From Spirochaetia bacterium (lineage in GTDB: Bacteria > Spirochaetota > Spirochaetia > SZUA-6 > Bin103), in contig OZ241863.1 of the NCBI GenBank assembly GCA_965203055.1, positions 2,752,001-2,816,000 on the forward strand: 64,000 nt of DNA, read 5' to 3'. The position numbers and the translations under genes were made by a program. Positions 5,743 to 56,623 of this stretch are shown here, one piece after another. The first letter of the stretch is position 1; the number at the start of each line of letters is the position of its first letter. The notes beneath the pieces were generated by a model. That model was not told where the DNA came from. It saw nothing but the letters and a program-made list of their open reading frames with translations, and did not search any database.

Positions 5743-5769
5743 GGGCGCACTTCCAATGTGTTGGTACCG
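5743..5769 (+). mobile_element. Isolated ISKra4-type terminal inverted repeat, followed by an internally deleted HNH gene remnant (to ~5900)
   Basis: GGGCGCACTTCCAATGTGTTGGTACCG matches the reverse complement of 41306-41332 at 26/27 and resembles the IS ends at 55101 and 56623. Confidence 0.75.
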
Positions 5770-5992
5770 GTCCCGCGCGTCGGCGCCGAAGCCGGCGACC
5801 GACACCGCCATCACCGCTACCGCCACGCCGGCGCCGGATTCGGCCGCCCGGCGAGGATCGTCAGGCGCCGAGCGGGCGCCTCATCCCCCCTACGCCATGA
5901 ACGTGACCGATAGTTGCGCAGCGCCCGAAATCTCCGGCAAGCAACGCAGACGCCGCGCCGTTGCATGGGGGCAGAGGAGAGAATGACACCGA

Positions 5993-6970: not shown

Positions 6971-7557
6971 GCGTCAGTCGGACATGCGGCGCAGCAACGC
7001 CTCGAGTTCGGCCAGACGCGCTTCTGCGGCTTGGCGGGCGGCGGCCCGCGCCGGCTAAGCTAAAGGCGCCGAGCAAACTTCAGCGGCGAGGGTATCGGCG
7101 CAGGCGCCGGCGCAGCCGGGAGACGAAGCCGCTGACCGCCCGGACACTTCGGCGGCGAAGCCGGCGACCGACACCACTTCGGAGCTGAAGACGCGGCGCC
7201 TCGGCCGGCAGGCTGCGGCGGGCGCAGCCGGCTGCGCCGCCGCGGACCCGGACTTCGGCAGCGAAGACGGGCGTGACCGGCCGCGCCATCCCGGCGGCGG
7301 TCAAGCGCGAGGTGTGGCGGCGTGACCGCGGCCGCTGCCGCTACGTGGACGGCGCCAGTGGGCGCCGCTGCGGCTCGCAACACCTGCTGCAGATCGATCA
7401 CGTCGTGCCGTATGCCTGCGGCGGCGCCGCCGAGCCGAACAATCTCCGCCTGCTGTGCGCCGCCCATCACCGCTACCGCCACGCCGGCGCCGGATTCGGG
7501 CGCCCCGGCGAGGATCGTCAGGCGCCGAGCGGGCGCCTCACCCCCCCTACGCCATGA
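6971..7557. pseudogene. Fused remnants: Uma2 3' end (6971-7042, minus) and HNH gene C-terminal part (~7050-7557, plus)
   Basis: 6971-7042 is near-identical to 4823-4893. 7273-7557 encodes the same HNH domain as 39779-41122 but lacks the N-terminal domain. Confidence 0.8.
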
Positions 7558-36357: not shown

Positions 36358-38313
36358 GTGAGGATCAGCTCCCCCGGCGCACGTTCACGTTCCGGCTTCA
36401 CCCTGTTCCTGGCCGCGCTGGCGGTAGCGGGCGCCGGGCTGGTGCTGGCGCGGGAAGTCACCTACGGGCCGGGACTGAGGGGTGACGCCCTCGGCCTGAT
36501 AGCGATGGCCCGCAACCTGCTGGCCGGCGAGGGCCTTACCTATATCAGCGGCCGCGCCCAGACCAACTGGCCGCCGTTCTACCCGCTGCTGCTGGCCGCC
36601 GGCGGCCTGGTGGGGTTCGACCCGCTTCACGTCGCCGGTCCGCTCAACGCGGCCCTCTTCGGGCTGACCGTCTTCATCGCCGGGCGCCACCTGCGCCGGC
36701 GCCTCCGGTCGCGCTTCCTGGCGGTGTGGGCCGCGCTTGCGGTCGTCCTGTCGGTGCCGCTGGCGACGCGGGCGTGGACGGCGATGTCCGAACCGACCTT
36801 CATCCTGCTGGCGGCCGCAGCGCTGATGCAGACCGACCGGTTCCTCACCGAAGGGCGCACTCCGGCCCTGGCGTGGGCCGCGGTCTGCGGCTCGCTGGCG
36901 TTCCTGACCCGCTACGCGGGCGTGGCCGTGCCGTTGGCCGTGGGGCTGGCGCTGCTCTGCCAACCGCGCGCGTCGTTCCGGCAGCGGGCGGGGCGGATCG
37001 CCGCGGTGGCGCTGACCGCCGCCGTTCCCATGGCGCTGTGGCTGCTCCGCAACTACCTGGTCACCGGGCAGCTCATCAAGCAGGTGGCCGACCTGCGGCC
37101 TCCCATCCTGTCCGTGCCGGCGGCGCTCGACGGGGTGCGCGCCACGCTGTGGGAATGGTCGTACCTCGACTTCCTGCCGCCCGCGGTCACCTGGGCGCTG
37201 CTGGCGCTGGCCGCCGCGGCGCTGCTGCCGATCGGCCTGGCGGCGGTCGGAGGGCGGCGCGAGCGGCCGCCGTTCGCGTGGCACGCCGTGCTGGTGTTCG
37301 GCGGTTTCACGCTGCTCTATCTCGTCGTGCTCATCGCTTCGATCACCACCCTCCCGCATCCCTGGCAGTCCCGGTTCCTGGCTCCGGTCTACGTCCCGCT
37401 GCTGGCGATCGCGGCGTTCGCCCTCGATTGGTTGCTGGCCGCGCCGCGGCGGCGGAACGCGGCGGCGGCGCGTCTGCCCGGCGCGGTCCTGATGGTGGCG
37501 CTCTCCCTCTGGACGGCGGCGCAGGTGGTGCGCGGCGGCTTCGAGATCCGCCGCCTCAACTCCGACCAGCCGTACCTCAGCTTCCTGTCGCAACCGTGGG
37601 CCGATTCGGCGACCGTGCGGCATCTCCGGGAGAACCCCGGCGGCGGCACGGTCTACAGCAACGTGCGCAACGCGGCGTACCTGTACGGCGACGGAACCGG
37701 GACCTATCACCGGCTTCCGGTGCGCTGGACGGAGCTGCAGGAGCAGGTGGCGGCGGCGCCGGACGGCGCGCGCCTGATCTGGTTCGACGCCTACCGGGTC
37801 GACCTGGTGTGGGGCCTGGTCCCGTACGACTACGGCGTTGCGCAACTGCGCGCGACCCGGGGCCTGGAACCGGTGGCGGAGTTGGCCGACGGCGCCGTCT
37901 TCACGGTAAACGCGGACTACGCGCCGCCCGCCAACGCGCATCTGGCGGCGTATGCGGCGATCGATGCGGGCGCTCTGGGCGAGCCGGCCGCCCGCGCCGC
38001 CTTCGACCTCTATCTCGACGGTAGGGAGCTGGTCTACCTGAAGAAGCCGTGCAGCCCCGACGACGCCGGCGAGCGGTTCTTCCTGCATCTGTTCCCGGCC
38101 GATGCCGCGGACCTGTCCGACCGCGGCCGGCAGCACGGCTTCGACAACCTGGACTTCGACTTCGCGGACCGCGGCGTGTTCCCGGCCGCCGATACGTGCC
38201 TGGCGCTGGTGCCGCTGCCGGACTACGACCGGGGCATCGACCGCATCCGTACCGGCCAGTGGATTCGCGGCGCAGGCCAGCTCTGGAGCGTGGAGTTCCG
38301 GACCTCCGAGTAG
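36358..38313 (+). CDS. GT-C fold membrane glycosyltransferase with one C-terminal FDLYLDG domain
   Basis: ARNLLAGEG, WPPFYPLLLA, MSEP and LTRYAG motifs; multiple TM helices. Confidence 0.75.
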   Translation: MRISSPGARSRSGFTLFLAALAVAGAGLVLAREVTYGPGLRGDALGLIAMARNLLAGEGLTYISGRAQTNWPPFYPLLLAAGGLVGFDPLHVAGPLNAALFGLTVFIAGRHLRRRLRSRFLAVWAALAVVLSVPLATRAWTAMSEPTFILLAAAALMQTDRFLTEGRTPALAWAAVCGSLAFLTRYAGVAVPLAVGLALLCQPRASFRQRAGRIAAVALTAAVPMALWLLRNYLVTGQLIKQVADLRPPILSVPAALDGVRATLWEWSYLDFLPPAVTWALLALAAAALLPIGLAAVGGRRERPPFAWHAVLVFGGFTLLYLVVLIASITTLPHPWQSRFLAPVYVPLLAIAAFALDWLLAAPRRRNAAAARLPGAVLMVALSLWTAAQVVRGGFEIRRLNSDQPYLSFLSQPWADSATVRHLRENPGGGTVYSNVRNAAYLYGDGTGTYHRLPVRWTELQEQVAAAPDGARLIWFDAYRVDLVWGLVPYDYGVAQLRATRGLEPVAELADGAVFTVNADYAPPANAHLAAYAAIDAGALGEPAARAAFDLYLDGRELVYLKKPCSPDDAGERFFLHLFPADAADLSDRGRQHGFDNLDFDFADRGVFPAADTCLALVPLPDYDRGIDRIRTGQWIRGAGQLWSVEFRTSE

Positions 38314-38377
38314 CCCGCCGCGCGAGGCTGGATGGCTGGAAGGAGTTGCTCAACCAAGTGAGCGAGAAGCGAGGTGG

Positions 38378-38782
38378 TCATACGGACCGGATCAGTGAGA
38401 GGTTCGGGATAGCAACGAAATCACGGTCGTGAGTAGCCAGCGGGCACTGCAACAGGATAGCGGTCGCGGCGATCCACGCATCGGCCAACTTCAGCTCCCG
38501 ACCGGCCGATCTACGTTCGCTACGCAAGCGGGCGCAGATCCGGACCAATTCGTCACTTGCCCACACGATCTCGTATTGATCGAGGTGTTCAGCGAGCGTG
38601 GCTTGGCGCCGTCTCTCCCAATTGCTCTTGTATGCCCCGTACCACAGTTCCTCCAAGGTCTGAAACGAGATGAGACTGCGACAGCCCGCCAGTTTTCCCT
38701 CATAGTATGGTGCCCGGCCATCCTGATTGTAGATGATCGAAACGACACTGGTGTCAACGACTACCAGCGGAGCGCTCATCAA
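38378..38782 (-). CDS. PIN domain protein (VapC-like toxin)
   Basis: VVDTSV, EEL, ADAWIAATA and THDRDF acidic PIN motifs. Confidence 0.9.
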   Translation of the reverse strand: MMSAPLVVVDTSVVSIIYNQDGRAPYYEGKLAGCRSLISFQTLEELWYGAYKSNWERRRQATLAEHLDQYEIVWASDELVRICARLRSERRSAGRELKLADAWIAATAILLQCPLATHDRDFVAIPNLSLIRSV

Positions 38783-39627
38783 GCGTCGCGACCTTCTCGG
38801 ATGATGCGCATGAACTCGTCGACATCGAACGGCTCGCTCGTCCTGACCACCTTCTCAGGGTCGAAGACCTTTGGGTCAGGGGCGTTCAACAGCTCGTCGA
38901 GATCATATGGCTGCAGCGACGATCTGGTCCCTTTGAGCTGCCCGACGTGAAAGTCTACCAAGCTGCCATCCGCGGCGAAGGTGCCGCGACCTCTAACCTC
39001 GACATACTGAGTCGCGTGACGCTGCATATCCTTATCCAGTGCGGCATCGAATCGGAGCCGAACCACGGGTTGGCCGTAGTTGTGCAGATGGGCAGTCCTT
39101 CGCTTCCAGTCGACCATCATCAGACGTCCCTGCAAGGTTGCATCGATTTCCTCGGCCGTACTCGGCTCATGGACTTGGCTCATTCTGGTCAGGGTCAACG
39201 AGCTTTCCGTGCCGGGGGAGCTGAGCCGTACTAAATATATTTCCTCCGACAATTCATTCCGCACGGCATTCAGCTCCTTGACGACTCCTTGAGGCAACGA
39301 CGGGTCTTGATCGCCTTTCCACCTCAGAAGGCGGTTCACGGCCCGAGGGCCGTAGTTCCATAGGTCGGGTTGCGCACCAACCGGAGGGGACAGTTCCAGC
39401 ACTGCGACAAGGGAACCCGGAGCCGTGCGCACCAGCCGCAGGGCGCTCTGGTCTCGCGCGAGCTTCGGCGGTCGGCCTCGGCGGGAAGGATCGGCGCCCA
39501 TCAGATGGACCACCATGAGTCGTACCGCCCGCTGCATATGCTCCAAGGTCTTAAGGAGATCCTTGACCGGCAGCCCGGCTTCGCTGACGCGTGGCCCCTT
39601 GAACGCGACATGTAGCTGGTTCTTCAG
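38779..39627 (-). CDS. Hypothetical protein translationally coupled to the PIN gene; C-terminus resembles an antitoxin
   Basis: ORF 38779..39546 stays open upstream to a CTG at 39627, 5 nt after GAGGAGG. ATGA-type overlap with the PIN gene. Visibly lower GC than the flanks. Confidence 0.65.
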   Translation of the reverse strand: MKNQLHVAFKGPRVSEAGLPVKDLLKTLEHMQRAVRLMVVHLMGADPSRRGRPPKLARDQSALRLVRTAPGSLVAVLELSPPVGAQPDLWNYGPRAVNRLLRWKGDQDPSLPQGVVKELNAVRNELSEEIYLVRLSSPGTESSLTLTRMSQVHEPSTAEEIDATLQGRLMMVDWKRRTAHLHNYGQPVVRLRFDAALDKDMQRHATQYVEVRGRGTFAADGSLVDFHVGQLKGTRSSLQPYDLDELLNAPDPKVFDPEKVVRTSEPFDVDEFMRIIREGRDA

Positions 39628-39778
39628 GGGAACCTCCTCGGTGGATAGGAGTGGACTTTGAGATTGGTCCCGATTCTATGGCCACCCAACGGTCAGCCTC
39701 CAGACGCTGGCCGCAGCATAGCACGCCGCGCACGGCTCGACAGACCACGCTCCGCGTGGGGCGCATCGGCGATCTTGA

Positions 39779-41122
39779 TCACCGGTCTACCGGAGCCTGA
39801 TCCTCGCCGGGGCGCCCGTATCCGGCACCGACGTGGCGGTAACGGTGATGGGCGGCGCACAGCAGGCGGAGATTGTTCGGCTCGGCGCCGCCGCCGCGGG
39901 CATACGGCACGACGTGATCGATCTGCAGCAGGTGCTGCGAGCCGCAGCGGCGCCCGCTGGTGCGGTCCACGTAGCGGCAGCGGCCCCGGTCGCGCCGCCA
40001 GACCTCGCGCTTGACCGCCGCCGGGATGGCGCGGCCGGTCACGCCCGGCTTCGCTGCCGAAGTCCGGGTCCGCGGCGGCGCAGCCGGCTGCGCGCACGCC
40101 GCAGCCTGCCGGTCGAGGCGCCGCGTCTTCGGCGCCGAAGTGGCGTCGCCCGCCGGCTTCGCTGCCGAAGTGTCCGGGCGGTCAGCGGCTTCGTCTCCCG
40201 GCTGCGCCGCCGCCTGAGTCGATACCTTCGCCGCCGAAGGATCGGCGCTGTCCGCGCTCGCCTCCTGCTTCGCTGCTGGGGCAGCGAAGCGAGCCGAGGC
40301 CGCCTGCGTCTTCGGCGCCGAAGTCTGCTCGGCTCCTTTGGCCGGCGCGGCGCGCCGCCCGCGCGGCGGCCGGGCCGGGTCGTGGCGGTCGAGCCCTTCC
40401 CGCACCAGCCCCAGGAGCTGCCCCATCGTCAGGTGCGGGTCGACGTGGGACAGGAGGCCCTGGAGCCGCTCCAAGCCCCGCCGGCACTCATCGTCGATCA
40501 CCGCCTTGAGCTCCCAGCGCCCGCTGCCCAGCGGCCGCACCCGATCCGCCGGCGCCGCCAGCTCCGGGTCCACCTCGGCCAGCAACTGCATCACCTCCCG
40601 GCTGCTCTTGCCGGACGCCTGCTCCACCAGCTCCCGCCGAGCCTCGGAGTCCAGCACCGGCGCCGGCTTCCGCTCCGCCGGCCGCGGCGGCGCCGAGCCC
40701 TCCTGCGATTGCGCGGCTGCCCCGAACCCGGTCCCGCCCGGCGCGCGCCGCGCCGCGCGTTCCTTCTTGCGCTCCTGCCGGTCGAAGGCATGCTGCAACT
40801 GCGCGGCCGCGTTCAGCGTCATCGAGCCATTCTGCAGGCGCTCCCGCACGCCCTCGACGTCCGCGCAGAGCCGCATCGCCTTGATACGCCGCCACGCTGC
40901 GGCGTCGCTGTAGCCCAGCTCGCGCACCGCGTAATCGAACAGGCTGGAGAACCCGCGGCGCAGGTACAGACGGCGCTTATGAATCTCGCGCAGGTGGTCG
41001 ATCACGACGACTTCGAGATGGTGTTCGATGCCGGAAAGTTCCTTGGTCCGCTCCAGCAAGCGGTCGTCTGAGAGGGCGGACACGGTAGTCGTGACGGCCC
41101 CGACGGAAGCATGTTTGCTCAT
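39779..41122 (-). CDS. HNH endonuclease with helical N-terminal (DUF222-like) domain and repetitive linker
   Basis: RAIPAAVKREVWRRDRGRC..C..LQIDHVVP..GG...NNLRLLCAAHH; N-terminal LYLRRGFSSLFDY motif. Confidence 0.9.
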   Translation of the reverse strand: MSKHASVGAVTTTVSALSDDRLLERTKELSGIEHHLEVVVIDHLREIHKRRLYLRRGFSSLFDYAVRELGYSDAAAWRRIKAMRLCADVEGVRERLQNGSMTLNAAAQLQHAFDRQERKKERAARRAPGGTGFGAAAQSQEGSAPPRPAERKPAPVLDSEARRELVEQASGKSSREVMQLLAEVDPELAAPADRVRPLGSGRWELKAVIDDECRRGLERLQGLLSHVDPHLTMGQLLGLVREGLDRHDPARPPRGRRAAPAKGAEQTSAPKTQAASARFAAPAAKQEASADSADPSAAKVSTQAAAQPGDEAADRPDTSAAKPAGDATSAPKTRRLDRQAAACAQPAAPPRTRTSAAKPGVTGRAIPAAVKREVWRRDRGRCRYVDRTSGRRCGSQHLLQIDHVVPYARGGGAEPNNLRLLCAAHHRYRHVGAGYGRPGEDQAPVDR

Positions 41123-41128
41123 GGCATA

Positions 41129-41157
41129 AGTATAATCATGGAAACTACTTGAGTCAA
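41129..41157 (-). promoter_or_regulatory. Near-consensus sigma70 promoter of the HNH gene (TTGACT-N17-TATACT), leaderless geometry
   Basis: -10 box ends 6 nt before the ATG; no Shine-Dalgarno sequence. Confidence 0.75.
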
Positions 41158-41514
41158 GTTATTCAGCCCGGAAGATGCCACCTGCGGGCGTGATTCGGCG
41201 GCGCATTTCCAAGCGGCTGGACGTTCCGTCATATGCTACTGCCGAGAACGTCGCCGGCGTCGAGCGGCAGGATTTCTTCTTACGGCCCCAGGCGGCCTCG
41301 TCGATCGGTACCAACAAATTGGAAGTGCGCCCTCCGCGTGACGTGGATTCGCGGCGTGGGCCAGCTCTGGAGCCGAGTTCCGGGCCGCCGAGTAGCCGGC
41401 GGCGACAGCCCCCGTTGCCCGGCGCGCAACCGCGCGCGTAGAATCCGGCAACGATGAAATCGATCTTGGCGGCGCTCGGCGTGACGCGCGTGACGCGACG
41501 GACGCGGACGTTGG

Positions 41515-41543
41515 TTGACACGCCAAGCAGTTCCGTGTACAAA
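41515..41543 (+). promoter_or_regulatory. Putative promoter TTGACA-N17-TACAAA
   Basis: Perfect -35 and 17-bp spacer; identical copy at 46772-46800. Confidence 0.6.
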
Positions 41544-41626
41544 CCGCCGACCGCCGACCGCCGACCGCCGACCGCCGACCGCCGACCGCCGACCGCCGAC
41601 CGCCGACCGCCGACCGCCGACCGCCG
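41543..41626 (+). repeat. Simple sequence repeat (ACCGCCG)12
   Basis: 84 bp of perfect heptamer, counted from the sequence. Confidence 0.95.
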
Positions 41627-43717
41627 TATGGTCGGTCTGGCTCTAGCCTATCGATAGCGGCTGCGTTTATCGCGCTCGGCGCGGCGCTGGCGTCCGCGGA
41701 CGAGACCGCGGTCCTGCGTCACGGCGCGTCGGTCAGCGAGCGCAACGCGCTGATCGTCTACGTGCGGGTAACGCTGGCGCGCGCGGCGCGGGTGTACGTG
41801 GAGTACGACCACCCGCAGGCCGGGCGCTACCGCACGCCGCTGAGCGAGCCGGGCGCGGCGCATGCCATCCCCCTCGTCAGGCTGCGCCCGGAGACGACCT
41901 ACGACTACACCATCTTCGTGGTGAACGGCTCCGTGGCCGACGGCGCAACGCTGGAAGGCGCGGATGCGGATGCGGCCGCCGGGCCGGGCGGCCGGTTCAC
42001 CACCGGATCGCTGCCGGCGCCCCTCGCCGTCATACCGATGAAGGCGCGCGGCAGGAGCTCGCAGCCGCTCATCTTGTCCGATTACCCGCGCGGGTACTAC
42101 GTCTTCTGGGACGAAGTGGGCGGAATAGTCTGGTACCAGGAAGGGTCCGGCGGCCCCATCACGCAGCTGCCGGCCGGCAACCTGATCTTCTTAGATCGGG
42201 GTCTGGTCGAGATCACCCCCCTTGGAGCAGTGGTCAACCGGTTTGAGCGGCACGGCGCCGCGGGGAATCCCCACCATGAGGTCACCCTGCTCGCCGATGG
42301 CCGCGTGATCTACCCGAGCCGGGAGTTCGTCGTCATCGACGACTCGGCGAACGGCGGGCCGGCGGAGGTCACGTTCAAGACCGACCATCTGCGCGTCTGG
42401 GACCGGGAGAGCGGACGCATCGAGCAGGTCTGGGACTCGAAGGACGCCTGGGACCTGATGGACCCGGCACTGCGCGTGAGGAGACCCGGACCCGGGGAAA
42501 TCTTTGATTGGACGCACCTCAACTCGGTGAGCATCGGTCCGCACGGCAACGTCGTCCTGTCGTTCCGCTGGCGCGATCAGGTGGTCTCACTCAGCGCCGA
42601 CTTGCGGGCGATCGAATGGCAACTGAACGGGCCGGACAGCGATTACCGGTTCCCCAACCCGAACGACCGGTTCTACGGGCAGCACACCGCGGCGCAGCTC
42701 GGCAACGGCAACGTTCTGCTGTTCGACAACGGCTGGGGGCGGCCCGCGGCGGAGGGCGGCGCCTACTCGCGCGCGCTGGAGCTGCGGCTGGACAAGGCGG
42801 CCGGCACCGCGGTGAAAGTGTGGGAATATCGGCCGACGCCGGACATCTACACGAGGGGCAAGGGCAGCGCGTACCGGCTGCGCAGCGGCAATACCCTGAT
42901 CAGCTTCCATGACACGATCGTGGAGGTGGACGCTGCCGGCAACGAAGTGTTCCGGGTCGATAACCTGCCATTGCATGCGGATTGGCCCTTGCCGGCGCGC
43001 TATCGAGCCTACGCCGGCAGCGGGGCGATCATGGGCGAAACCATGCTGCGGCCGCCGGCGGCGGCGCCCGCGCACGCGCGCGCCGCGACGTTCGATAAGG
43101 ACTACTACCTGGCCAAGGAGCGGGCGCGGTTCGAGGAGCTGGCGGCGGCCCTGGACGGCCGGCAGCGCGCCGCCGGCGGGGCGTTCGACATGTATCTGGC
43201 AGGGGACCGGCTGGTATACGCGAAGGCGCCTTGCGCTCCGCAGGATGTCCGGGCGCGCTTCTTTCTGCACGTCTTTCCGGCCGCCGAAGACGATCTGGCC
43301 GCAGACAGCCGCGAGCAGGGTTTCGACAACCTCGACTTCGATTTCTGGACGCGCGGCGTGTTCTGGGACGGCGCCTGCCTGGTGGCCGCGACCCTCCCGG
43401 ACTATGAGATCGCCCGCGTCCGTACCGGTCAGTTCATCCGCAGCGTGCGGCAGCTCTGGAGCGTGGAGTCCGCGGTCGGACCGACCGCGCGGCGCTATCG
43501 GGAAGCGCGCGCCGCGATCGTCTCCGGCGCCTGGAGAGCGCCGGTCGCGCGCGCGGCCTTCGACCTCTACCTCGACGGCCGGGTGCTGGCGTACCACAAG
43601 GAGCCGTGCGCGGCGGAGGACCTGCGAGAGCGGTTCTTCCTGCATGTGGTGCCGGCGGCCGTGGAGGACCTTGCCGCGCACTGTCCAGCGACAATCAAGA
43701 TGAGAATGCGCGGGTAG
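41627..43717 (+). CDS. Arylsulfate sulfotransferase (ASST)-like secreted protein; one full and one truncated FDLYLDG domain; true start uncertain
   Basis: PHHE, THLNSV, FYGQHTA and LLFDNG motifs. The frame is open upstream of GTG 41762 through a hydrophobic signal-like stretch into the repeat. The second domain breaks off at ~43675. Confidence 0.75.
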   Translation, partial: YGRSGSSLSIAAAFIALGAALASADETAVLRHGASVSERNALIVYVRVTLARAARVYVEYDHPQAGRYRTPLSEPGAAHAIPLVRLRPETTYDYTIFVVNGSVADGATLEGADADAAAGPGGRFTTGSLPAPLAVIPMKARGRSSQPLILSDYPRGYYVFWDEVGGIVWYQEGSGGPITQLPAGNLIFLDRGLVEITPLGAVVNRFERHGAAGNPHHEVTLLADGRVIYPSREFVVIDDSANGGPAEVTFKTDHLRVWDRESGRIEQVWDSKDAWDLMDPALRVRRPGPGEIFDWTHLNSVSIGPHGNVVLSFRWRDQVVSLSADLRAIEWQLNGPDSDYRFPNPNDRFYGQHTAAQLGNGNVLLFDNGWGRPAAEGGAYSRALELRLDKAAGTAVKVWEYRPTPDIYTRGKGSAYRLRSGNTLISFHDTIVEVDAAGNEVFRVDNLPLHADWPLPARYRAYAGSGAIMGETMLRPPAAAPAHARAATFDKDYYLAKERARFEELAAALDGRQRAAGGAFDMYLAGDRLVYAKAPCAPQDVRARFFLHVFPAAEDDLAADSREQGFDNLDFDFWTRGVFWDGACLVAATLPDYEIARVRTGQFIRSVRQLWSVESAVGPTARRYREARAAIVSGAWRAPVARAAFDLYLDGRVLAYHKEPCAAEDLRERFFLHVVPAAVEDLAAHCPATIKMRMRG

Positions 43718-55100: not shown

Positions 55101-56623
55101 GGGCGCACTTCCAAAACGTAGGTAGCGTCAGGCGGCCTGTGGCTGGGCCTCCTGCGGCACCGAGGCGGACAGCAGGCTCGCGTAGTCCCTTTTGAACCGC
55201 CCGCTCTTCACCGAGGTGCAGAGCTGCAGCATCCCCTGCGCCCCTCCCAACGACCAGATCATCCCGCTCCCCTTCAGCCGCGCCCCCACCATGTTCTTGC
55301 ACGTACTCTCCACCGCCCCACTGCCGATCGGCAGCCCCTCCCGCCGGTACCGCCGGTAGTCCATCCGTCCCTGGTTGCTCTTCAAGTAGTTGATCTCCCC
55401 CTGCACCTCGTGCCGCTGCCGGGCACTCAACCCCCCGCCGTCGCGCAACTCCTCCAGCTCCTCTATCACTTCCCCCGCCCGACTGCCGCGCAGCATCGTC
55501 CGCCACCTCCGAAAGCATTCCTCTGCCTGCTTGCTCCTCTCCCCGTAGACGCTCCGACTCGCCTCCGCGAGATGCTCGCAGGCGTGCCAGAAATCCAGGA
55601 TGTACCACACCCGCAGCCCCCCTGCCGCCCAGGTCTCCGCCCGATCCCAAATCCATCCCGCCCCGTCGGCCAGCACTACCAGTTGCCGCGCCGCCCCCTC
55701 GCCGCAGCGCCGTTTCAGCTCCACTTCGATGCGCGGGAAGAACTGGTCGGCATGCTCGCTCGCCGCCACGTAGCTCGGCTTGCTGCTGCACTGCGCCTCC
55801 TGCTCCTCAGCGTCCCACTCCACCGCCGCCACCACCGCCACCTTGGCGTCCCGGTACTCCCGCTCGTAGCGCTTCTTCCCGGCATCATCTACCCGCTCCT
55901 TGCCGCGCACCGGCACCTTCCCCGCGTCGATGCATACCGCCACCGTCCCGCCAATCGGCTCGTGCAGCTCCGGCCCCGCCGCAGTCTGCTGGTAGTTGTC
56001 CACCTCCTGCTGGCGCTGCCGTTCCAACCCCTCCGTTACCTCCTGCACCATCGTGAACGCCTTCTTCTCCGACACCAGCTCCCCGCCGTCGGCGCGGAAC
56101 ACCTCGTGAAACTGCCGCAGACTCTCTGCGTGCGCCTGGCGCGCTACGAACTGACTCAGAAAGTACTGGCAGCCCGGCGTATGGCCGCGCTTGATGCCGA
56201 GCCGCTCATCCAACGGCGCCCAGCCCTGGCCGCTACCGCTGGCGTAGTAGGCCCGTTCGTAGGGTACCGTCCCGAACAGTCCGTGCAGGGTCTTGGAGCG
56301 GTGGCCGACAAACCGATACGACACCCCGTTGCGCTGGACCGTGGCGCCGCGGTAATCGCGGCCCAGTTCCTTGAACCACTCCACCATGGCGGCGCGGCAC
56401 AGGCGCACCAAGCACTTGAGGAGACTCAGTTCTGCCCGCAACAGGTCGTGGGGACCGCTAGCGCGGCCCAGTTCGAGACCACAGGTGGCCTTGCAGTAGT
56501 TGAGAATCTCGGTTACCAATGAATCACACATATGTTGCCCTCCCAGTGACGGCCTGATGTTACATCACCTGTCGCTGGGAGGGCTTCTCTATTTGGGCCT
56601 ACCTACAAATTGGAAGTGCGCCC
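55101..56623. mobile_element. ISKra4-family (Mutator-like) insertion sequence
   Basis: 25-bp IRs GGGCGCACTTCCAAAACGTAGGTAG and GGGCGCACTTCCAATTTGTAGGTAG (22/25); CAGGAAG repeated on both flanks. Confidence 0.9.
55128..56531 (-). CDS. ISKra4/UPF0236-type DDE transposase
   Basis: CIDAG, LADGAGWIW, LDFWHACEHL and MDY..YR..GLPIGSGAVESTCK motifs. Confidence 0.9.
   Translation of the reverse strand: MCDSLVTEILNYCKATCGLELGRASGPHDLLRAELSLLKCLVRLCRAAMVEWFKELGRDYRGATVQRNGVSYRFVGHRSKTLHGLFGTVPYERAYYASGSGQGWAPLDERLGIKRGHTPGCQYFLSQFVARQAHAESLRQFHEVFRADGGELVSEKKAFTMVQEVTEGLERQRQQEVDNYQQTAAGPELHEPIGGTVAVCIDAGKVPVRGKERVDDAGKKRYEREYRDAKVAVVAAVEWDAEEQEAQCSSKPSYVAASEHADQFFPRIEVELKRRCGEGAARQLVVLADGAGWIWDRAETWAAGGLRVWYILDFWHACEHLAEASRSVYGERSKQAEECFRRWRTMLRGSRAGEVIEELEELRDGGGLSARQRHEVQGEINYLKSNQGRMDYRRYRREGLPIGSGAVESTCKNMVGARLKGSGMIWSLGGAQGMLQLCTSVKSGRFKRDYASLLSASVPQEAQPQAA

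Follow-up and report, generated by a model that had tools for sequence, protein, structure and literature searches.

Positions 39759-41332 of the window analysed here (64,000 nt of a Spirochaetia genome, contig OZ241863.1; coordinates are those of this window unless given as genome coordinates) are occupied by a 1574-bp element whose sole intact cargo is the gene for an HNH nuclease of 447 amino acids. With a probability of roughly three in four, we read it as an old, end-damaged and probably immobile non-autonomous transposon of the ISKra4 type, that is, a mobile insertion cassette, which derives from a larger unit by deletion and whose HNH gene was selected after insertion. The element runs from GGGCGCA to TGCGCCC between exact 8-bp direct repeats, and every coordinate given for it in a first-pass annotation of this DNA was confirmed from the sequence. 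Its features, with those of two related loci in the window, are as follows.

39751-39758, no strand: left copy of the target-site duplication, TCCGCGTG; the same 8 bp stand at 41333-41340
39759-39765, plus strand: remnant of the left terminal inverted repeat, its outermost 7 nt, GGGCGCA; ~70 nt of the canonical left end are gone
39779-41122, minus strand: HNH nuclease gene, 447 aa (list of open reading frames, Pfam, AlphaFold2 model, 50-homologue alignment)
41129-41157, minus strand: sigma-70-like promoter TTGACT-17-TATACT, ending 6 nt before the ATG (promoter scan)
41199-41214, plus strand: internal copy of the insertion sequence (IS) end core ('INT'), in the orientation of the left end (end-core scan; present in 25/33 copies)
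41215-41306, minus strand: what a deletion has left of the 3' end of a DrmMI/type-IIG-like methyltransferase gene (stop, the codons before it and the trailer); this stretch is collinear with long-form copies L069-L071
41303-41332, minus strand: right terminal inverted repeat, a 30-nt block conserved at the right edge of other copies, with the outermost TGCGCCC at 41326-41332
41333-41340, no strand: right copy of the target-site duplication, TCCGCGTG (read from sequence)
5743-5870, plus strand: degenerate mini-copy consisting of a right-end repeat (5743-5795) and the last ~60 nt of the HNH 3' region (5808-5870) (alignment)
55101-56623, minus strand: autonomous ISKra4-family IS of 1523 bp, transposase open reading frame 55128-56531 (curated model, copy search)

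The window element is a member of a family, not a chance arrangement: the 4.56-Mb single-contig genome (G000) holds 61 matches to it, 32 of them exceeding 1.3 kb at 86-100% identity. In the list of open reading frames the HNH gene is the only long one in the element with a family match, and no transposase gene is present there, Pfam and NCBIfam returning HNH alone. The gene length and a stop codon that begins 20 bp from the left end, both annotated earlier, are borne out by the open reading frames and Pfam. The promoter proposed for the gene is consensus-like, and the region contains two promoter-like sites where 0.1 is expected from shuffles; the promoter is visible upstream of the gene across 33 aligned copies. 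From the promoter-to-ATG distance, a leaderless HNH mRNA is a fair prediction. The earlier observation that the same inverted repeat precedes an HNH remnant at 5743 also stands, the right-end copy at 5743-5795 abutting HNH 3' fragments, of which a second lies beyond the mini-copy at 7034-7527.

Both ends of the element have counterparts in the IS at 55101-56623. The transposase of this IS scores 216.8 bits against the ISKra4 model NF033572 (cut-off 205) and covers 28-421 of 422 model positions, in agreement with the ISKra4-type identity assigned at first pass. The two ends of the IS share a 14-nt core and can be distinguished from each other. Roughly 36/40 nt at the left end of the HNH element agree with one of them and roughly 23/24 nt at its right end with the other, both counted by eye. 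The likeness of the right repeat to the IS, already noticed in the first annotation, amounts to 95.8% identity over the last 24 nt of the window copy (41309-41332), and in the longer form of the element described below it extends across ~45 nt. By these alignments, both element ends are homologous to those of an autonomous IS in the same genome. The genome contains eight full copies of the IS, of which six, including that in the window, are identical, one differs at 2 positions and one at 27; a scan of G000 with the end core gives 109 matches. At G000:C1:623623-625292 an autonomous IS lies inside an HNH element, with ~9 nt of the element on either side.

Target duplications were assessed by comparing the flanks of the 12 HNH elements having both ends with 132 non-cognate pairings. 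In the 9-bp register, 4/12 elements agree at no fewer than 7 of 9 positions (9/9 in two cases), as against 1/132 non-cognate pairings that reach 7. The window copy matches at 8/8 in the 8-bp register, and in the 8- or 7-bp register one further HNH element matches at 7/8 and another at 7/7. The resident IS behaves likewise: its nine copies have five 9-bp duplications (four 9/9, one 8/9) and four exact 8-bp ones.

One copy, at genome 3324926-3326624, has a 9/9 duplication and lies between two genes conserved across the family. These genes are ~1.83 kb apart in G000 and 94-189 bp apart, with no element between them, in four related species (G004, G003, G008 and G007); in G010 they are separated by an unrelated 1.2-kb insert. 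The counterpart spacers are too diverged to reveal a single 9-bp word, and the site is therefore an insertion polymorphism and not a base-exact empty site. The first-pass annotation had held that its proposal would fall if other HNH copies lacked these ends and duplications and no empty site existed. This is contradicted by the data, as both recur and empty sites are seen for one copy. An empty site, in the form of this polymorphism, was found for that copy and not for the window copy itself.

Other sites were informative mainly as filled ones. No paralogous empty site was found within G000 for 13 elements. When the flanks of 16 copies from a related genome, G011, were mapped to G000, they gave two clear orthologous filled sites and a single paralogue that has diverged; the other flanks fall at scattered or repeated places in G000, and none marks an empty site. 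Among 24 genomes of the family, matches to the left flank of the window copy are confined to a toxin-antitoxin-like cassette that stands in a different setting. Both window junctions are bridged, in the filled state, by contigs from four public sponge or marine metagenome runs, and no joint skipping the element occurs among those listed, with 8 joints beyond them and contigs dropping rare variants. In public runs X14, X16, X1 and X5, from four studies, summed contig depth over 39788-41230 exceeds that of the flanks by a factor of tens to hundreds; this agrees with many copies in the community and does not amount to a copy number.

The left end of the window copy is damaged. Left-edge alignment shows a canonical left end of ~77 nt in most copies, which combines a short palindrome and a microsatellite of the CCCAGT type with the terminal GGGCGCA(T/C)TTCCAAAA core; one canonical copy that has both ends lies at genome 968884-970597. 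The microsatellite varies in length, reaching 6 full units and a partial one at genome 2557439-2557542; the adjoining palindrome, GGCCGC-TTG-GCGGCC, belongs to the HNH-element left end, and the IS end is without it. The window copy retains the outermost 7 nt and has lost ~70 nt, so that its inverted repeat is only 7 nt long, and it is therefore probably immobile: a truncated end of this kind is probably no longer a transposase substrate. Three other copies in G000 have similar losses, with 7-17 nt of the end joined to the HNH tail. The loss in the window copy is old, because the G011 ortholog at the same site has identical junctions and the same 8-bp repeats.

The right arm of the element discloses its origin. 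The stretch between the HNH promoter and the right end varies in length among copies and, on the gene strand, encodes the C-terminus of a large protein. The gene extends upstream in three copies (the long form, L069-L071) as a methyltransferase that matches almost the entire PADLOC model DrmMI (1280.6 bits), type IIG models (595 bits), and the Eco57I, MmeI methyltransferase and MmeI target-recognition domains of Pfam. All three are damaged: one, open for 1305+ aa, has lost its 5' end, another is interrupted by an IS21-type insertion and the third carries a frameshift. These are the only copies in which a methyltransferase adjoins HNH. In two long copies the first ~24 nt of the right repeat are identical to the right end of the short form, and the short-form right arm is a collinear series of long-form pieces; the short form is therefore a deletion derivative of a ~5.9-kb unit in which one end is followed by the methyltransferase, an internal end-like word, HNH and the other end. 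This word matches the end core at 13/14 positions and in 25/33 copies separates the stop of the methyltransferase gene from the HNH promoter. The earlier description of HNH as the only cargo accordingly needs qualifying: it is the sole intact cargo, and the right arm is a methyltransferase remnant in a family that comes from a larger transposon.

Damaged ones counted, G000 holds ~8 copies of the DrmMI/type-IIG-like methyltransferase. Four of these are further full-length paralogues (~1300 aa, 84-90% amino acid identity) without IS-type ends or HNH, at G000:C1:980339-984244, 2067164-2070967, 2594787-2598716 and 4384019-4387831. The IS21-type pair at locus L070 (G000:C1:1399591-1402022) encodes a 514-aa IstA-like protein and a 346-aa AAA ATPase resembling IstB, as assigned by eye.

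The HNH copies are older than the IS copies. Pairwise, 32 HNH copies are 85-95.8% identical, with a median of 91.8% (488 pairs), and G000 and G011 share at least two orthologous insertions; judged by these identities and by the six identical IS copies, the HNH burst is old and the IS burst recent. The family is now mostly fossil. The gene is open over at least 430 codons in 20/25 full-length candidates. For dN/dS we used 15 of these 20 open copies, leaving out four with altered C-termini and one divergent paralogue; one copy open for 425 codons also fell outside the set, below the 430-codon threshold. The ratio is 0.16 for the N-terminal domain, 0.48 for the middle region, 0.95 for the linker and 0.33 for the HNH domain, 0.42 overall, and the at least 19 gap blocks by which the 15 copies differ are all in frame. 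Orthologous G000/G011 copies give 0.36 and 0.32 (~20 synonymous and ~21 non-synonymous differences each), and selection on HNH therefore acted after insertion. By these ratios, the HNH genes are under purifying selection. The G011 locus L043, compared with window 36782-43681, is 99.5% identical over the 3 kb left of the element, 96% over the element and 90.8% over the right flank; this mosaic, together with the scattered flanks, suggests heavy recombination or exchange between lineages.

In the HNH protein, helical domains of DNA-binding-like type at the N-terminus are joined by a low-complexity, disordered linker to a C-terminal HNH domain, which matches Pfam HNH PF01844 at residues 392-429 (29.2 bits, cut-off 21.4). 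An AlphaFold2 model built on a 50-sequence alignment has a mean pLDDT of 76, is confident over residues 10-125, 155-250 and 365-430, and is disordered over 255-360; the single-sequence model (mean pLDDT 42) was not usable. The catalytic-type residues D402, H403, N417 and H425 and cysteines 382, 393 and 422 are nearly invariant among 50 homologues. The HNH fold matches the HNH domains of IscB, McrA and Cap5 at Z 6.5-7.4, IscB being best at 7.4. Residues 32-187 resemble ParB-family domains (KorB, ParB, Spo0J, VirB, SopB; Z 4.9-6.5 over ~98 residues), and residues 200-250 resemble ribbon-helix-helix proteins (Z 4.4-4.7), both middling matches; the ParB-family scores fall short of what the comparison program rates as clear.

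Other searches with this protein returned little beyond the HNH domain. Foldseek against the PDB gave no match to the model at E ≤ 0.001, and a profile search of solved structures gave HNH domains only. The family is large, with 813 cluster representatives matching at E ≤ 1e-30, and in all 12 distant members scanned the N-terminal part is without a Pfam model. Pfam DUF222 (PF02720) matches neither the protein (E ≤ 0.01) nor the six-frame genome (E ≤ 1); as a lead only, the cluster that neighbours the N-terminal half in a language-model search (score 0.94) has DUF222 in 12% of its members. The guided_IscB model reaches 23.6 bits against a cut-off of 175, over residues 369-430 only, which is the HNH part, and Pfam and NCBIfam find no RuvC domain. 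Rfam gives no match in the window at gathering score, and two weak unrelated ones at E ≤ 1 within 39500-41600. PADLOC gives HNH a weak match to a type II restriction enzyme (E 1.2e-4).

Of 18 other genomes in the same family, 15 contain HNH genes of this kind, one of them with as many as 98 matches, and 12 genomes from other families of the order yield a single weak match; these counts come from a search with stricter filters and are floors. A search for related loci with one HNH protein gave 13 loci: 12 from two related genomes, mostly overlapping loci already covered, and a thirteenth that is a weak match. Close homologues of the transposase occur in G001, G003, G004, G005, G010 and G018. 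The pairing of HNH with ISKra4 ends, which the first annotation had seen recur within the window, recurs also in G003, with that genome's own end sequence. There, HNH and transposase are ~55% and 54% identical, respectively, to those of G000, and the HNH units, 93-99% alike, are bounded by the G003 IS end GGGTGCATTC..., unlike that of G000, and hold two transposase-gene remnants. Elements with both ends, 3 of 7 loci examined in G003, have duplications of 9/9, 8/9 and 7/9. On this comparison HNH either joined ISKra4-type ends long ago or has done so repeatedly, and the ends vary together with the IS of the genome in question. At 10 loci in G017, complete IS-type ends were not definable; there is just an end-like word after the stop codon.

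These observations are consistent with a model in which the ancestor would have been a ~5.9-kb unit with ISKra4-type ends, carrying a DrmMI/type-IIG-like methyltransferase gene and then an HNH gene. The short form, 1.6-1.8 kb long, arose when an internal deletion took out the greater part of the methyltransferase. An ISKra4-family DDE transposase acting in trans may then have spread it to 30 or more sites, with target duplications of 8-9 bp. The burst would predate the split of G000 and G011, and a later deletion in the window copy would have cut its left end down to 7 nt. The HNH product is modelled as a nuclease with ParB/KorB-like and ribbon-helix-helix-like DNA-binding domains, expressed from its own putative leaderless promoter, and it would have been kept functional by selection after insertion, independent of ongoing transposition. 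The data show that the copies form a family with ends homologous to those of the IS, that they have target duplications, that one copy is polymorphic for insertion, that the short form arose by deletion and that HNH is under purifying selection; mobilisation in trans and the function of HNH are inferred.

Several results weigh against this model. The window copy and copies 1940692 and 2169524 match in the 8- or 7-bp register only, and 3/12 paired copies show no recognisable duplication (4/9 or less, with no match in the 8- or 7-bp register). A recognisable right end is kept in only 16/33 copies. No empty site for the window copy was found in G011, in the 24 family genomes or in the public metagenome contigs, and no transposition event was observed. 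The IS burst is recent, with six of eight copies identical, yet there are no near-identical HNH copies (maximum 95.8%), and mobilisation by the present IS is therefore not shown. The IS at 55101-56623, put forward at first pass as the source of transposase in trans, is on these identities a poor recent candidate; it is a relative of the likely past source. The transposase was not found (E ≤ 0.001) in G011, G017, G007 and G015, all of which have HNH genes (36, 54, 44 and 2 matches, respectively), and in genomes of this kind the genes stay intact. In G011 a second HNH subfamily of 9 loci repeats promoter, open reading frame and ~70-nt tail, from the -35 box as first conserved base, and has no ISKra4-type ends. 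Finally, the DNA-binding fold assignments are middling (Z 5-6.5 and 4.4-4.7).

The rival readings differ chiefly in what the HNH protein does. Per-copy purifying selection on a redundant gene, even where the transposase was not found, is unlike what passive cargo predicts and fits either a copy-preserving selfish activity or a dosage-dependent host function. We lean, at a little under even odds, towards a sequence-specific nuclease that acts selfishly to preserve its copies; a host function in defence or of restriction type ranks second, as a distinctly less probable role. More speculatively, the ParB-like domain might recognise ISKra4-type ends, the HNH domain cut, and repair copy or preserve the element, which would make it a counterpart of TnpB/IscB or a hyper-parasite of the IS. 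We find this doubtful; if true, it would explain why HNH lies between duplicated IS ends in two species with different ends, and also why HNH outnumbers the IS and each copy stays functional. The first-pass annotation proposed a related nuclease-transposon partnership that could explain the expansion; in the form weighed here, HNH, as a protein-guided analogue of TnpB/IscB, would bind the ends or the vacated site and cut, and repair would restore or spread the element. HNH derivatives are, from a reading of the 109 end-core matches, the only abundant non-autonomous ones with these ends in G000; the association recurs in G003 with co-varying ends; selection acts on each copy; the predicted N-terminal domains resemble sequence-specific DNA binders; and HNH always lies between two direct copies of the IS 'A' end. 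The autonomous IS, however, has no HNH, and a recent burst of the IS was accompanied by none of HNH. The insertion sites differ in sequence, so that a protein-only nuclease could not recognise each vacated site. The analogy with TnpB/IscB has no direct support: a RuvC domain and a known guide RNA family are absent (guided_IscB 23.6 bits against 175, nothing in Rfam), and HNH genes are intact where the transposase was not found. We consider this partnership unlikely.

Alternatively, HNH may be a defence or restriction cargo that benefits the host, once paired with the adjacent methyltransferase, spread passively and kept by host-level selection. In the long form HNH does follow immediately on a methyltransferase with matches to the DISARM model DrmMI (1280.6 bits) and to type IIG models, four more full-length methyltransferase paralogues might protect the genome, HNH itself has the weak PADLOC match to a type II restriction enzyme (E 1.2e-4) and persists without transposase, and transposase-less restriction-modification units with inverted repeats and 8-bp duplications are described (PMC2853133). 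Against this, 3/3 element-borne methyltransferases are damaged while ~15-20 HNH genes are intact, no methyltransferase remnant stands upstream of HNH at any of 11 loci in other genomes, and host-level selection should not keep about half of 32 redundant copies open; we hold the reading rather improbable. A homing-type selfish gene is less probable still: here the mobile unit would be the HNH cassette of promoter, open reading frame and short tail, and the IS-bounded elements secondary vehicles. The 9 loci of G011 subfamily 2, which run from the -35 box to ~70 nt past the stop without IS-type ends, suggest such a unit, as do the same 3' breakpoint at the left junction of the window copy, the four G000 copies that join just 7-17 nt of end to the HNH tail, and the position of HNH between direct 'A'-end copies in two species. 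The bare cassette nevertheless has no defined target, duplication or empty site, its 5' flanks are of a few shared types, which suggests recombination between copies and not fresh insertions, and whole IS-bounded units have classical target duplications. That a chance 7-nt inverted repeat and 8-bp direct repeat merely surround an ordinary gene might be entertained for this copy alone, with its 7-nt repeat in a G+C-rich genome; set against 32 near-full copies with longer shared ends, duplications elsewhere and a same-site G011 copy with the same junctions, it is vanishingly improbable.

As a vehicle, the element is of a known kind, the mobile insertion cassette, of which MIC231/IS231 is the classic case. 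Like such cassettes, it has IS-type terminal repeats, no transposase, a passenger gene, a duplication of the parent's length and an autonomous IS in the genome. It differs from them in several respects: what it carries is a nuclease gene, on which purifying selection acts across many copies; near-full copies (32) are more numerous than those of the IS (8); a second species has the same pairing, with ends that co-vary; and the family descends from a larger methyltransferase and HNH unit. The REP13E12, or DUF222-HNH, genes of actinobacteria are also multi-copy and of the same size (~450 aa), and their products, for which no role is known, likewise pair a helical N-terminal part with HNH at the C-terminus; Pfam DUF222 is unmatched in our protein, and to our knowledge IS-type ends have not been described for REP13E12. 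In the literature searched, we found nothing linking HNH genes with ISKra4, or describing an HNH endonuclease as an IS passenger gene, and the one paper, in two versions, that mentions REP13E12 together with HNH is unrelated.

Guerillot et al. (2014, PMC3942029) class the ISKra4 group as p-MULT 4 of the Mutator-like prokaryotic transposons and report four ISKra4 elements in which additional genes, with no assigned function, accompany the transposase. Our transposase belongs to this family, and the cargo-bearing elements differ in having lost it. Restriction-modification units between inverted repeats, one with a type IIG gene among them, with an 8-bp duplication and no transposase, are reported by Furuta, Abe and Kobayashi (2010), who raise mobilisation in trans as a possibility (PMC2853133). 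Those units are single-copy with repeats matching no known IS; in our case, the ends match a resident IS family and a nuclease-only derivative has multiplied. Nuclease help is established for IS200/IS605 elements (preprint 10.1101/2023.03.14.532601). Their TnpB and IscB genes are likewise nuclease genes in a transposon, and the IscB HNH domain is the best structural match to ours (Z 7.4). The present system differs in having no RuvC or known guide RNA, a DDE transposase that lies outside the element, and insertion sites without a common sequence by which a protein could locate a vacated site.

Multi-copy genes that combine helical domains with HNH are common in several bacterial phyla. Here IS-type ends, target duplications, an empty site and a series of deletions from a larger methyltransferase and HNH transposon reveal the vehicle, and about half of some 30 old, redundant nuclease genes are under purifying selection, also where the transposase was not found. 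The case bears on whether DDE transposons have nuclease partners in the manner of TnpB/IscB or carry defence or selfish cassettes as hitch-hikers.

On its right, the element is followed after ~80 bp by a promoter-like sequence, TTGCCC-18-TAGAAT (41415-41444, plus strand); some ISKra4-group elements are reported to insert upstream of sigma-A promoters (PMC3942029). Immediately to its left, at 38378-39546, are two overlapping minus-strand open reading frames of 134 and 255 aa, which recur at 74-79% identity in G017, G006, G031 and G032 in differing surroundings. The pair looks like a mobile toxin-antitoxin-type pair, the PIN-like label being assigned by eye. Between this pair and the insertion site, at 39696-39746, lies a ~47-nt word that is repeated elsewhere in G000 and G011 at 82-92% identity; it is a small dispersed repeat, next to which the element landed.

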